A stretch of 32,000 nucleotides of DNA from Candidatus Thorarchaeota archaeon (GTDB lineage Archaea > Asgardarchaeota > Thorarchaeia > Thorarchaeales > Thorarchaeaceae). Positions 1,992 to 21,617 of this stretch are shown in pieces; position 1 is the first letter of the stretch, and each line of letters begins with the position of its first letter. The position numbers and the translations under genes are program-made. The stretch lies in assembly GCA_008080745.1 (NCBI GenBank), contig SHMX01000001.1:180001-212000 (forward strand), in the 5' to 3' direction. The notes beneath the pieces were generated by a model. It was not told the DNA's origin. It worked only from the letters and a program-made list of their open reading frames with translations, and did no database searches.

Positions 1992-2077
1992 ACGAATTAA
2001 CTATTTCCAGCAACTCCACCGAAGGACTTCTTTTTACAGAGTCTAAAAATTAGATTGAGTTATAAAAAATGTAGAGG

Positions 2078-2093
2078 GAGGGCAGGTGCCCTC
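2078..2093 (-). terminator. Hairpin downstream of the thiolase-DUF35 operon
   Basis: gagggca-gg-tgccctc, 5 nt past the DUF35 stop; a T-run follows shortly on the minus strand. Confidence 0.45.
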
Positions 2094-2098
2094 TTAAA

Positions 2099-2515
2099 CT
2101 ATACAAGCCACTTGTAAGTAATCTTCTTTGCGTCAATCTTGTCGAAGGCTAGTTTCAGATTCATACCGACTTCAGGCATACTCATCAAGTTTGTAATATG
2201 GGCTGTTAGGCGAAGCCCTGAGGGAAACTCACCAATAGCCACAACATAAGGGGCCTTTGATGAAAGGGTCTCAGGGGCAAAGTCCACAATAACATAACTA
2301 TAGAGCTTTGCCTCTTTTTCGGTATGTTCTTCCAGTTCACATTTGGATAGGTCCTTCTGGCAGTATTCACGAGGGGGAAGATACTCTGTACCACACTTAG
2401 TACACTTGCTCTTCATGAGTTTCTCCTGTTCCAAGGCCTCCAAAAAGTCTTGGAAAAAGGGAGTAATTGCCTTGTCAGTAGTATATCCCAAATAGAGTTC
2501 TTTCTCTTCACTCAT
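2099..2515 (-). CDS. Zn-ribbon/OB-fold protein (DUF35 family), thiolase partner
   Basis: KCTKCGTEYLPPREYC rubredoxin-like ribbon followed by OB-fold (LYSYVIV, APYVVAIGEF). ATG 2515 lies immediately after the thiolase stop. Confidence 0.92.
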   Translation of the reverse strand: MSEEKELYLGYTTDKAITPFFQDFLEALEQEKLMKSKCTKCGTEYLPPREYCQKDLSKCELEEHTEKEAKLYSYVIVDFAPETLSSKAPYVVAIGEFPSGLRLTAHITNLMSMPEVGMNLKLAFDKIDAKKITYKWLV

Positions 2516-2516
2516 T

Positions 2517-3683
2517 TTACCAACCTCTCTCAAAGATGAATACGTTCACAAATTGTCCTGACTGACCTACATTATGTGCCAGACCAAGCTTTACATCCTC
2601 TATTTGACGTGACTGATTCTCAGCCTCACCGCGCATCTGCTTCATAATCTCATAGGTCATAGATACGCCCGTAGCACCTAGGGGGTGACCCTTACTCTTG
2701 AGACCTCCATCACAGTTTACAGGAATGCGACCAGTGTGATAGTTCTCCTTGTTCTCAACTATCTCTCTGCCTTTTCCTGGTTCTGCAAAACCGAGGTCCT
2801 CATATGCAATGAGTTCCGCAATTGTGAAACAGTCGTGTACTTGAGCCATATCGATATCATCTGGACCCACCCCAGCCATTTCATAAGCTGCTTTTGCAGC
2901 ATGTTTTGCACCAGGAATCGAAGTGAGTGACTCACGATCTTGGATTTTCATGGATGAAGCACCAGCTCCAATTCCTTTGATCCACATTGGACGATCTGTA
3001 AATTCGTTCACACGATCTTCAGCAGCAATCACAACTGCTGCTGCTCCATCAGTGATAAGACTACAATCATATAGATTCAATGGTCTACAGATAGGAATTG
3101 CATTATTTGCTTCCTCAAAAGACACCTCTCTTGGTAGATGTGCCTTTGGATTTTGAGCACCATAGTGATGGGATTTCACTGCAATCTTAGCTAAAACATC
3201 ATGAGGCATATCATATTCATGCATATACCTTGATGCCATAAGAGCATAAAAAGCAGGGAAAGAGATACCGTAGGGATACTCCCACCGCATATCACCCGCT
3301 TGTGACATATATTCTGTAGCTGTAGCAGATGAAACACGATTCATCTGTTCTACACCTAGTACTAACATAACATCATAGAGACCAGCAGCAACCATTCCCC
3401 AAGCAGCTCTCAACGAAGCAGTTCCCGTGGTACATGCAGACTCAACCCGTAGATGGGGCTTATCGTAAAGACCGATATAGTCTGCAATTAGAGCTGAACC
3501 AGCTCCTTGACCTGTGAACTGTGATGCTGCGTATGATAGAACAGTGGCATCAATCTTGTCTTGAGTAATGCCTTCATCGTATATTGGCTTGTATGCCTCT
3601 GCAGAGAGTTCTCTCATTGTAGCATCGTAACGTTTTCCGAACTTGGAATGGCCTCCGGCCACAACTGCAACCTTTCTTGCCAT
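2517..3683 (-). CDS. Thiolase, SCP-x/archaeal HDCF type (acetyl-CoA acyltransferase)
   Basis: VESACTTG (catalytic Cys), QVHDCFTIAE, SKGHPLGATG, HNVG. Start ATG 3683 follows GGAGG. Confidence 0.95.
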   Translation of the reverse strand: MARKVAVVAGGHSKFGKRYDATMRELSAEAYKPIYDEGITQDKIDATVLSYAASQFTGQGAGSALIADYIGLYDKPHLRVESACTTGTASLRAAWGMVAAGLYDVMLVLGVEQMNRVSSATATEYMSQAGDMRWEYPYGISFPAFYALMASRYMHEYDMPHDVLAKIAVKSHHYGAQNPKAHLPREVSFEEANNAIPICRPLNLYDCSLITDGAAAVVIAAEDRVNEFTDRPMWIKGIGAGASSMKIQDRESLTSIPGAKHAAKAAYEMAGVGPDDIDMAQVHDCFTIAELIAYEDLGFAEPGKGREIVENKENYHTGRIPVNCDGGLKSKGHPLGATGVSMTYEIMKQMRGEAENQSRQIEDVKLGLAHNVGQSGQFVNVFIFERGW

Positions 3684-19205: not shown

Positions 19206-19267
19206 AAGTAAATCGACAATTTACAAGGCTTTAAGTCACACTCTATGACATAGTGAGTTGGATAATA

Positions 19268-20014
19268 ATGACTCTGACTCTAAAACAAAAAGAGCGGTAC
19301 TCGCGATTCCTTCGATTAAACGAGATACAAAAGGAGGATATGGAATCAATTGTACGCACGACTGTTGGTGTTGTTGGGGCAGGAGGTCTGGGAAGTTCTT
19401 CCCTAAGACTACTCACTGCTATAGGTTTTGGAAGAATCATAATTGTTGATTCAGACGAAGTTGAATTATCTAATATTCAGAGACAGACACTCTATAATAC
19501 AGAGGATGTGGGAAGACCCAAGGTAGAAGCCGCAGTAGAGAACCTGATGAAGCTAAACCCAGAAGTGAAATTTGAACCGAAGAAAGTGAGGGTTAATGAG
19601 GATAATGTTGAGGATATACTTCGGGATACAGACATTATTATTGATGGACTCGATTCCTTCAAAACACGGAAAATAGTCAATAAATTCAGCTTGGAAAGCA
19701 AGAAACCCTACATTTTTGCGGGTGCTGTAGAATTTTATGCAAATACTACGACCTTTCAGCCCGATAGTACGGGTTGTTTCCATTGTATTATGGGGGATGC
19801 TAAAGATAATCCAGAAATGACATGTGCGTCTATTGGTATAACCCCGGAAATACTACCAATGGTCACCAGCGTTCAGGTTCGAGAAGCGGTACTAATTGCA
19901 ACAGATAGAAAACCCAACCTTGCCAATAGATTACTGTCTATTGATATTGGCACTCTTGTTTTTGAAATGTTTGATATAAAAAAGAATGAGGAATGCGAAG
20001 TCTGTGGAGTTTAA
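19268..20014 (+). CDS. HesA/MoeB/ThiF family E1-like adenylyltransferase
   Basis: ERYSR, VVGAGGLGS, DSDEVELSNIQRQ, DGLD, Zn ligands CFHC and CEVC, putative active Cys in TCASIG. Start ATG 19268. Confidence 0.93.
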   Translation: MTLTLKQKERYSRFLRLNEIQKEDMESIVRTTVGVVGAGGLGSSSLRLLTAIGFGRIIIVDSDEVELSNIQRQTLYNTEDVGRPKVEAAVENLMKLNPEVKFEPKKVRVNEDNVEDILRDTDIIIDGLDSFKTRKIVNKFSLESKKPYIFAGAVEFYANTTTFQPDSTGCFHCIMGDAKDNPEMTCASIGITPEILPMVTSVQVREAVLIATDRKPNLANRLLSIDIGTLVFEMFDIKKNEECEVCGV

Positions 20015-21156
20015 GCTCCAAAGAACAGTCTTCGCGCTCTTCTCTTCCTCTCCTCATCACTCTGATCATCTGGTGGTGGTGGAGGTGGAGGTGGTGTGGT
20101 CTTGTCCGCTTCGTCTTTGGACTCGACTTCTTCATCTTCTTCCTCGTCCTCACTGCCTTCTTCGGATTCATCCTCAGAATCGTCAGGAATAGATGGTTCA
20201 TCATAGGGACTCCATACTCGCTTAGGATCAGTAGGAACTTCATCTTCAGAATCGGATGTTTTGGATTCGACTGATTCCTCTGAATCTGGAGCTATAGTTT
20301 CTTCATAGTCACTCCAAGTAAATTCAGGTCCCTCGGAAGGTTTTGAGGGGGATTCTGGTGAAGCGCTCTGTTCGAAGTCATCAGTTGGAGGTATACTTCG
20401 CTCTGGCATAGAAGTCCTTTCAAAACTGGATTCTGGAGTAATTTCCGTATCGGTTTCGGTTTCTTCGGATTTTTCAGGTATCGGTGGTAGTTCTGATTCA
20501 GAACGAAGAGATTCTACACCTAATGGACTGGGTTCAATCAGTTCAAAGTCATCTTCAAAATGTCGTGATGAGGAACTGAAGGAGTAATCATCTGATTCTT
20601 GCTTGTCGGATTTACCTAGAGATTCGACAGATAATGGTTCAATATCCTCACTCTCAGATTCGATAGGAACTTCTGATTCAATAGGTTCAGTTGACTCAGT
20701 AGGAATTTCAAATTCGTCGGTTTCAGGAGATTCAGCTCTTTCAACTTTTTCACGAGTTATAGACTCAGAATAACTAGTGGTATCAGATGAAGTTTCGTAA
20801 GAACCTCTCTCTGGTTCGTAAGCAGAACTTTCCGGGATTTCCGATCCACTTTCTGTGTGTTGATAATCCTCGGTTACTTCATCTCTTGCTGTTTCGGTCT
20901 TTTTGAATTCGACTCCCAATTTCCAGCTAAGACACTCTTCACATTTCTTTGCAGCCGCTATTAGTCCGTCCGCTATGAAATCTTCAAGCGATTTGGCTTG
21001 TTCAGGATTGCGTCGCGACCATCTCAGAAAGCTATCTACCATACGTAAAGCGTCACGAACGCCTAACCAATACTTCTCGTCCTTCTCCGAGCTCAATGGT
21101 GACACCTGAAGATGGAGATATGTAATTATGACAAAAGCCTTTGCATTACATACCAA
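20011..21156 (-). CDS. Acidic intrinsically disordered protein with N-terminal helical/CxxC domain and C-terminal poly-Pro plus basic helix
   Basis: Long E/S/D/P-rich open frame with P8 and a final RKRRARRLFFGA. The true start is probably TTG 21096 or GTG 21105. Confidence 0.85.
   Translation of the reverse strand: MVCNAKAFVIITYLHLQVSPLSSEKDEKYWLGVRDALRMVDSFLRWSRRNPEQAKSLEDFIADGLIAAAKKCEECLSWKLGVEFKKTETARDEVTEDYQHTESGSEIPESSAYEPERGSYETSSDTTSYSESITREKVERAESPETDEFEIPTESTEPIESEVPIESESEDIEPLSVESLGKSDKQESDDYSFSSSSRHFEDDFELIEPSPLGVESLRSESELPPIPEKSEETETDTEITPESSFERTSMPERSIPPTDDFEQSASPESPSKPSEGPEFTWSDYEETIAPDSEESVESKTSDSEDEVPTDPKRVWSPYDEPSIPDDSEDESEEGSEDEEEDEEVESKDEADKTTPPPPPPPPDDQSDEERKRRARRLFFGA
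20071..20094 (-). repeat. Eight consecutive Pro codons (CCA/CCT)
   Basis: tggtggtggtggaggtggaggtgg on the plus strand, read in frame with the stop at 20011. Confidence 0.9.
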
Positions 21157-21164
21157 AATACATG

Positions 21165-21617
21165 CTACAACCCGCGTGTCGTAAGCAATTCTTCCACGAG
21201 ACCTTCAAAAGCTGAGATAATCCTCTTCCGCTCATCATCATCAAGGGGTTCATCAAGAATGAGCAACCTGCATGGAACACTTCCAATTTTTTCCTTGACT
21301 TTGTTTTTGTATTTCGCCTCAAGATCCGGGTCGGTCTTCTCTAATACAACCATAGCCCCATGAGCGCCAGTATAAGTCATAGTCAAGAGGATATCCAGAG
21401 CTGAATGTTTGGAAAACATAAAGACAGCTCTAACGTCTGCTCCGTGACTCTCCCGCTCAATAGATCCTATACTTATTCCATCAACAGATACTAGATCTTT
21501 ATTGAAGATCCTCACAACTTCCTCTAATAGATCTTCATCGGGGCCAAGTAGGGTAATCTTAAACAGAAACCTTTGCCCTTTCCTTTCCGAGGCTGGTGAC
21601 ATCAATAATTTCTCCAT
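21165..21617 (-). CDS. Degenerate Rab/Ras-like small GTPase-fold protein (pseudo-GTPase)
   Basis: FLFKITLLG and TYTGAHGAMVVLEKTD echo Rab1 YLFKLLLIG and YYRGAHGIIVVYDVTD, but GxxxxGKS/T, DxxG and NKxD are absent. Confidence 0.7.
   Translation of the reverse strand: MEKLLMSPASERKGQRFLFKITLLGPDEDLLEEVVRIFNKDLVSVDGISIGSIERESHGADVRAVFMFSKHSALDILLTMTYTGAHGAMVVLEKTDPDLEAKYKNKVKEKIGSVPCRLLILDEPLDDDERKRIISAFEGLVEELLTTRGL

Follow-up and report, generated by a model that had tools for sequence, protein, structure and literature searches.

A 32,000-nucleotide stretch of a Candidatus Thorarchaeota genome (contig SHMX01000001.1, positions 180,001 to 212,000; hereafter, the window) carries a small gene whose product is probably a class i-type, Rab-derived pseudoGTPase acting as a nucleotide-independent adaptor, a function that we infer and that it most likely performs together with the protein encoded next door. 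The gene, an old and strongly selected dead switch of Rab origin, belongs to the core genes of an entire Asgard lineage.

In the list of open reading frames, the longest frame of the pseudoGTPase gene spans positions 21165 to 21617 of the minus strand (150 aa plus stop). The true start is probably the second ATG, at 21602, which gives a protein of 145 aa, because orthologs and gene callers begin there (MSP...). The initial annotation described the product as a Rab-like protein with its nucleotide-binding motifs erased and its Rab scaffold kept, and every string that it quoted is found in this frame. The G1 position is occupied by FLFKITLLGPDEDLLE, and along beta1 and the former P-loop (FLFKITLLG-PDED-LLE, 21522 to 21569, minus strand) the glycine-rich GxxxxGK[ST] loop has become a short acidic turn. 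At the start of the former G3/switch II region, FMFSKHS (21402 to 21422, minus strand) takes the place of DxxGQ, leaving no DxxG, while beta5 and the former G4 position read LLILDEPLD (21240 to 21266, minus strand) in place of NKxD, with no [NT]KxD. The end of the Rab-like helix 2 and the following beta4 are represented by TYTGAHGAMVVLEKTD (21330 to 21377, minus strand), a stretch identified by profile and alignment matches that is the best-aligning part of the protein against the YYRGA..IVVYD of Rabs and the FYKGS.AAIIV of active Asgard GTPases. A single long helix (residues 127 to 149; 21171 to 21239, minus strand) ends the protein, and alpha4, beta6, and the G5 (SAK) loop are absent. The motif loss therefore stands as first described, but the deletion of the C-terminal third of the G-domain had been overlooked.

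It had also been expected that motif-based annotation would miss such a gene, and this is the case: the protein has no Pfam or NCBIfam family, matches no Pfam family at E values up to 10, reaches no Pfam gathering threshold, and lies outside the 34 PF00071 matches of its own genome. Two NCBIfam matches, IOR_alpha and IteA, were dismissed as chance level, since their E values of 0.04 to 0.13 are far under the cut-offs. When a second copy was sought in the same genome, only the gene at 21165 to 21617 was found. Of the 34 PF00071 loci, 30 yielded Ras-like frames, 32 in total, and every one of these frames keeps G1 and G4; by motif content, the pseudoGTPase is the single motif-less copy among the Ras-family genes checked in this genome.

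Neither GxxxxGK[ST] nor [NT]KxD occurs in any of the 77 distinct family sequences. The dead P-loop is thus conserved in orthologs from several Asgard lineages and is not the product of lineage-specific decay, the outcome that would have spoken against the initial annotation. At the G1 position, the family carries G-P-[DEN]-[DE] or G-T-S-D (in short, G-[PT]-x-[DE]; G-P-D-E in the window copy), and at the place expected for the Lys/Ser that binds phosphate, an acidic residue is nearly invariant. The P-loop is shortened rather than merely substituted, as helix 1 of the predicted model starts three residues past the beta1 glycine. The switch I Thr is lost, with an invariant (V/I)DG standing there across the family; the DxxGQ of G3 has given way to [MW][SF]P..[HN][SA]A; and the G5 region is absent, since the chain stops one helix past beta5. 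The RabF4/F5-like TY.GA..A.IV is kept; the RabF motifs of the switch regions have disappeared, and the C-terminus carries no Cys. Positions that are invariant in the family are found in three places: VDG of the former switch I, SP.HSALD.L of the former switch II, and the surroundings of the acidic turn. Degenerate G motifs on a G-domain fold, here a predicted one, correspond to the structural definition of a class i pseudoGTPase.

Sequence profiles and structural models both place this protein next to Rabs. A PDB search with the single sequence returned nine matches, all sub-threshold (E 0.1 to 1), of which eight were Rab proteins aligned over the same G-domain region (Rab23 at E 0.1; Rab21 and Rab5C at about 1). 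With a family profile built from 11 members, the matches were headed by Rab23 (E 1.5e-7) and Ypt32 (5e-6), followed by Rab35, Rab8, Rab1, and Rab11, and all 60 matches listed were Rab/Ypt proteins. Using hhalign, we compared a 39-sequence family alignment with 12 active Asgard GTPases (nine from this genome and three Lokiarchaeia-type). The two aligned from beta1 to beta5 over 99 columns at a probability of 97% (E 1.2e-10), interrupted by a gap of 13 columns where the P-loop and helix 1 lie. Judged by these comparisons, the Rab likeness is more than chance.

The AlphaFold2 model obtained with the family alignment (pLDDT 87.4, pTM 0.81) comprises beta1 (residues 16 to 24), a helix (28 to 38), beta2 (43 to 57), beta3 (60 to 69), a second helix (75 to 82), beta4 (87 to 92), a third helix (97 to 110), beta5 (116 to 120), and the one long helix that closes the protein. 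This is a predicted G-domain fold, but with five strands and four helices instead of the canonical six and five. The Ras G-domain fold expected from the initial annotation was borne out by the structure searches: the best 50 Foldseek matches in the PDB were all Rab proteins (E from 8e-8), and a VIA-align search against representative structures ranked Rab23 first (Z 15.4, rmsd 2.6, 135 residues), then Sec4 (Z 15.0) and Ypt32 (Z 14.8), these three superposing on the model at rmsd 2.5 to 2.9 over 135 to 137 residues, followed by M-Ras, Ran, RhoA, and MglA. Within the ESM Atlas, the protein matched its own Thorarchaeota cluster best (TM 0.85), and every other match belonged to the Ras, Roc, or Arf families. 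Nearly the whole length of the model matches Rab23 residues 5 to 175; therefore, the closing helix replaces alpha5, with alpha4 and beta6 missing. There is no room for G5, because only that single helix follows beta5.

These results bear on the reading that the protein is not derived from a GTPase at all, being either a convergent flavodoxin-like alpha/beta fold or the remnant of a decaying pseudogene. The absence of a Pfam or NCBIfam match and the sub-threshold single-sequence PDB matches would fit such a reading, but the profile-sequence and profile-profile matches are significant, in register, and exclusive to Rab/Ras, and the gene is widely retained (88% of the genomes of f1, the window's own family) with a dN/dS of 0.08. 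We consider a non-GTPase or pseudogene origin extremely unlikely, as it is largely refuted by the profile matches, the structural superposition, and the dN/dS.

Selection was estimated by the Nei-Gojobori method from 16 ortholog pairs with dS between 0.1 and 1.5, giving a median dN/dS of 0.08 (range 0.05 to 0.23), a value low enough to show that the gene is kept by selection and is not decaying. Among 1.84 billion representative sequences, 12 clusters matched at E up to 1e-3, and a profile search of 90% clusters found 37 family proteins, the named ones being labelled Lokiarchaeota, Promethearchaeota, Sifarchaeia, or Helarchaeota, with the exception of P0035, which bears the label Candidatus Deferrimicrobium. 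Thorarchaeota make up most of the nearest ESM Atlas cluster. The family profile was also run against 400 genomes of the phylum, with E values below 1e-30 counted as strong matches. Strong matches occurred in 75 of 85 f1 genomes, in the one genome of f2, in all three f17 genomes (Hel-type, 190 to 200 aa), in one of two f19 genomes, and in three of five f30 genomes (Sif-type, with tandem duplicates). Six f16 genomes gave intermediate matches (1e-13 to 1e-15), and many Lokiarchaeia-type genomes gave weak ones (about 1e-8), of which those read out were mostly ordinary GTPases of 177 to 187 aa with GDGGVGKT, WDIAGQ, NKID, and SAK, and one was the 428-aa protein of L044, which has degenerate G motifs.

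The f16 proteins match the pseudoGTPase family at 1e-15 and also pass the Pfam Ras and Roc thresholds, and by these matches they form a bridge between the family and Ras/Roc. In a maximum-likelihood tree of 58 G-domains (16 of them family rows), the pseudoGTPase family formed one clade with 100/99 support on a stem of 2.1 substitutions per site, and it joined the P-loop-less f16 proteins at 100/98. Since the tree includes the lost-motif columns and its branches are long, the union with f16 could be inflated. As it stands, the grouping of the aligned sequences fits one old loss.

Several members differ from the window copy in their layout. In three Sif-type f30 genomes (G307-G309, loci L012-L014), two family copies of 150 aa and about 160 aa stand in tandem about 230 nt apart. 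The Hel-type and f19 members (L007, L009-L011, L046; P0026-P0045) carry a C-terminal extension, AGKP.Y.VDEFGF...G(I/V)PLF, followed by a charged tail. AlphaFold2 predicted the core of the Hel-type member P0041 confidently and its extension at pLDDT 34 to 60, with a placement that is not confident. The idea that this extension arose by fusion with part of the Thor-type partner described below found no support, as an HMM comparison with 27 partner sequences gave a best E value of 0.4. Many Thor-clade orthologs have short polybasic N- or C-termini (+5 to +14), and one may speculate that these could contact the acidic linker of the partner, membranes, or nucleic acids.

The pseudoGTPase descends from small GTPases of the Rab-like kind, in which Asgard archaea abound, and keeps a core of beta1 to beta5, helices 1 to 3, and one closing helix. 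Its P-loop has become a short acidic turn, the switch I Thr, DxxG, and NKxD have been lost, and the alpha4-beta6-G5 half that holds the guanine base has been deleted; these losses, read from the sequence and the model, imply that the protein should no longer cycle between GTP and GDP. With both the P-loop and the base-binding half deleted, it is expected neither to bind nor to hydrolyze guanine nucleotides. A competing reading sees the protein as a switch or sensor instead of a dead scaffold, with a nucleotide or some other phosphate ligand bound in a non-canonical manner. Some so-called pseudoGTPases later proved to bind nucleotide, and G25 and G47 are invariant here, but in all 77 sequences the P-loop is shortened to an acidic turn in which an Asp/Glu hardly varies, the Lys/Ser-Thr pair and NKxD are lacking, and beta6/SAK is deleted, and we regard non-canonical binding as very improbable. 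Most likely, the pseudoGTPase works as a constitutive protein-binding module.

Directly downstream of the pseudoGTPase gene and in the same direction lies a gene for an acidic, disordered protein of about 360 aa with a net charge of about -70 (20011 to 21105, minus strand). Its longest open reading frame (20011 to 21156, with a TTG start at 21156) is probably some 17 to 20 codons too long, and the start is probably TTG 21096 or GTG 21105, because the alignment with orthologs points there. Given the revised start, the gap between the two genes is 59 to 68 nt, the same as in orthologous loci. The protein opens with a conserved helical head domain, YW.GVRDALRMVDSF ... AAAKRCE.CL ... LG (20887 to 21099, minus strand), which matches no known family. 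This head has 65 aa, of which about 25 are invariant or nearly so. It has no Pfam match, and relatives of known function were detected neither by Pfam nor by PDB profile nor in the protein atlas, where its feature scores were at most 0.81; the best PDB profile match, Legionella lpg1496, was rejected as a relative because its E value of 0.05 is not significant.

The head is followed by a hyper-acidic linker of about 260 aa that is rich in Glu, Ser, Pro, and Asp. Three conserved aromatic-acidic islands in this linker, R.F..DFEL.EP, FTW.DYE, and WSP.DEP, resemble short linear motifs. The protein closes with a conserved C-terminal module made of eight prolines, an acidic stretch, and RKRRARRLFFGA (20014 to 20106, minus strand), and this end is nearly invariant over 30 aa up to the terminal ERRRRARRLFFG. 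Across the lineage, the partner measures 300 to 380 aa and has the RRLFF tail. On the opposite strand, a ThiF/E1-like gene (PF00899, E 1e-65; 19253 to 20014, plus strand) converges on the partner gene, with the 3' ends overlapping by 4 nt, and ThiF, DUF362, and an aminotransferase are also found near the locus in the orthologous L002 and L003.

The putative pairing of the pseudoGTPase with this adjacent disordered protein, which the initial annotation had suggested for complex prediction, is supported by conserved gene neighborhood and co-occurrence. The partner adjoins the pseudoGTPase in 21 of the 24 loci of the f1 set (L015-L038). The three exceptions are L037, where the contig ends; L020 (genome G348), where a transposase-like frame stands beside the pseudoGTPase and the partner is found on contig G348:C47; and L021, the f2 genome, where the partner lies upstream. 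In L020, the frame in the usual partner place (2042 to 3451, minus strand) encodes 470 aa and has a Cys cluster resembling a zinc ribbon at its C-terminus. In the f2/P0009 clade, the partner has 141 to 144 aa and is encoded divergently upstream, with the head and an RRRRLFFSA tail kept, and the adjacency has therefore survived a rearrangement. Among the 85 f1 genomes, 74 have the partner, and these are almost the same genomes as those with the pseudoGTPase; ten lack both genes, one of them being single-contig. This co-absence adds little, because it is expected for adjacent genes in draft assemblies.

The partner head domain was not detected in the genomes of f17 (Hel-type), f19, f30 (Sif-type), or f16, and the partner family is present in f14 (18 of 19 genomes) and in f3 without a strong pseudoGTPase family member. 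The linkage to the acidic protein is thus conserved within one order-level lineage, and the pairing is not universal. In four f14 genomes (G100, G095, G110, and G104; L091-L093 and L095), members of the partner family end in KRRTFFF, and their linker is rich in Pro and Glu (PEPEP). Within 1 to 2 kb of them are encoded a thioredoxin, an Arf/MglA-like GTPase whose P-loop is intact, and a protein with a weak match to Roadblock/LC7 that stays under the cut-off (E 0.009), and a second, head-only copy of about 80 to 125 aa is found elsewhere in the same genomes. Complex prediction with the pseudoGTPase and the partner head only, in two runs made without controls, gave an ipSAE of 0.01, a result that speaks neither for nor against binding.

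Active Rabs bind their effectors through the switch I/switch II side. The former switch I/II stretches and the acidic turn are the likely interaction surface of the pseudoGTPase, because its invariant residues lie there and active Rabs use this face for effectors. The same invariant residues would also suit a protein that acts as a silent partner or regulator of one of the approximately 30 active Rab-like GTPases of the genome, the acidic neighbor being incidental. Such a protein could make up one half of a heterodimer, act as a decoy that engages a GEF, GAP, or effector, or form a homodimer through the beta5 edge that the missing beta6 exposes. The tandem duplicates in Sif-type f30 suggest pairing of G-like domains, and the f17, f19, and f30 members manage without the acidic partner. 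Against this, neither the window nor any orthologous locus that we examined has an active GTPase gene next to the pseudoGTPase, and the acidic protein is the only conserved neighbor relation that we found. We therefore consider a silent-partner role fairly unlikely and return to the adaptor, for which the acidic neighbor would be the most likely ligand in the window's lineage.

The pseudoGTPase and its neighbor, with its head, acidic linker, eight prolines, and basic-hydrophobic RRLFF tail, may together form a two-part adaptor or tether. In the most specific form of this idea, which we hold to be distinctly unlikely as it stands, the pair would be an Asgard-specific, nucleotide-independent tether in which the pseudoGTPase docks on the head or the aromatic-acidic motifs, the linker acts as a spacer, and the polybasic-diphenylalanine tail (RRLFF, KRRTFFF) serves as an anchor. 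The target of that anchor might be a membrane or a receptor of the coat or cytoskeleton type.

Small GTPases are a hallmark of the link between Asgard archaea and eukaryotes. To our knowledge, work on pseudoGTPases, dead switches that have been put to new use as binding modules, has dealt almost exclusively with eukaryotes. Full-text literature searching on archaeal pseudoGTPases returned general reviews and no description of this family, no publication on a comparable archaeal pseudoGTPase came to light, and two large Asgard surveys based on structure name clusters of small GTPases without mentioning dead ones. The family marks a blind spot in motif- and Pfam-based counts of Asgard GTPases. 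If the adaptor or tether reading is true, adaptor-type pseudoGTPases (compare AAGAB and CENP-M) and motif-rich disordered adaptors would predate eukaryotes, and, given the inferred scaffold role, the reuse of G-domains as scaffolds would start in archaea. The pseudoGTPase is small, soluble-looking, and easily expressed, and its candidate partner has a eukaryote-like disordered architecture, which makes both directly testable.

Among known systems, the closest are the Asgard Rab-like GTPases themselves, an example of which is the Thor-Rab of Thorarchaeota SMTZ1-45, known from a crystal structure (PMC10933270). The pseudoGTPase shares with this group, which has about 30 paralogs in its genome, the homologous beta1-beta5 core found by hhalign, as well as FKI.V.G, the beta3 Trp (in part of the family), F/YY.GA..AIIV, and G..IP before beta5. 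It also shares the absence of a C-terminal prenylation Cys, a residue that active Asgard Rab-like proteins likewise lack (PMC10933270). On the other hand, the active proteins have G1 to G5 complete in 180 to 200 aa, whereas the pseudoGTPase has none of these motifs, a shortened P-loop, and no alpha4 or beta6 in about 145 aa. By its sequence, it lacks every motif that defines the Ras/Rab family proper (PF00071). Eukaryotic Rabs (Rab23, Sec4, Ypt32/Rab11, Rab35, Rab8, and Rab1) provide its best PDB profile and structure matches, but they are only 14 to 20% identical to it, and, unlike them, it has no nucleotide motifs, no Cys-bearing hypervariable tail, and five strands only.

The P-loop-less Ras-like proteins of f16 are the sister group in the tree and have the same G-P-x-E/D replacement of the P-loop, but they differ from the pseudoGTPase in passing the Pfam Ras/Roc cut-offs, in keeping the WD of G3, in having an extra domain of about 170 aa, and in that no acidic partner was found for them. 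In genomes G122, G117, and G118 (L039-L041), these proteins have 316 to 333 aa and read VVGPREEVKDRF and IWDVYDSPPF before the domain of about 170 aa, which has a Cys motif (CDECERDC). A separate pseudoGTPase candidate, judging from its degenerate G motifs (GNNSTKPD, WDYDAEE, and GLKIH), is a Lokiarchaeia-type protein of 428 aa from genome G205 of f22 (L044, 6 to 1289, minus strand), whose Ras domain passes Pfam (E 7e-31) and whose C-terminal domain of about 240 aa ends in a Cys cluster.

In the classification of Stiegler and Boggon 2020, as cited in PMC12490416, class i pseudoGTPases include the N-terminal domain of AAGAB/Irc6, CENP-M, and the pG1/pG2 domains of p190RhoGAP. By analogy with these eukaryotic proteins, which have a G-domain fold without G motifs and use it for protein-protein interaction, the window protein would likely work in the same mode; it differs from them in being archaeal, stand-alone, and more truncated (no beta6), with a candidate partner and a predicted nucleotide-free state. 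CENP-M, AAGAB, and p190 pG were absent among the 60 profile and 50 structure matches listed, which are mostly active Rab/Ras proteins, so that a relation to a family outside these lists stays conceivable. As no specific sequence relation to AAGAB/Irc6, CENP-M, or p190RhoGAP pG was found among the matches listed, the family points to an independent origin from Asgard Rab-like genes. Altogether, the pseudoGTPase is an archaeal form of a known kind, with an unusual truncated G-domain and a candidate partner.
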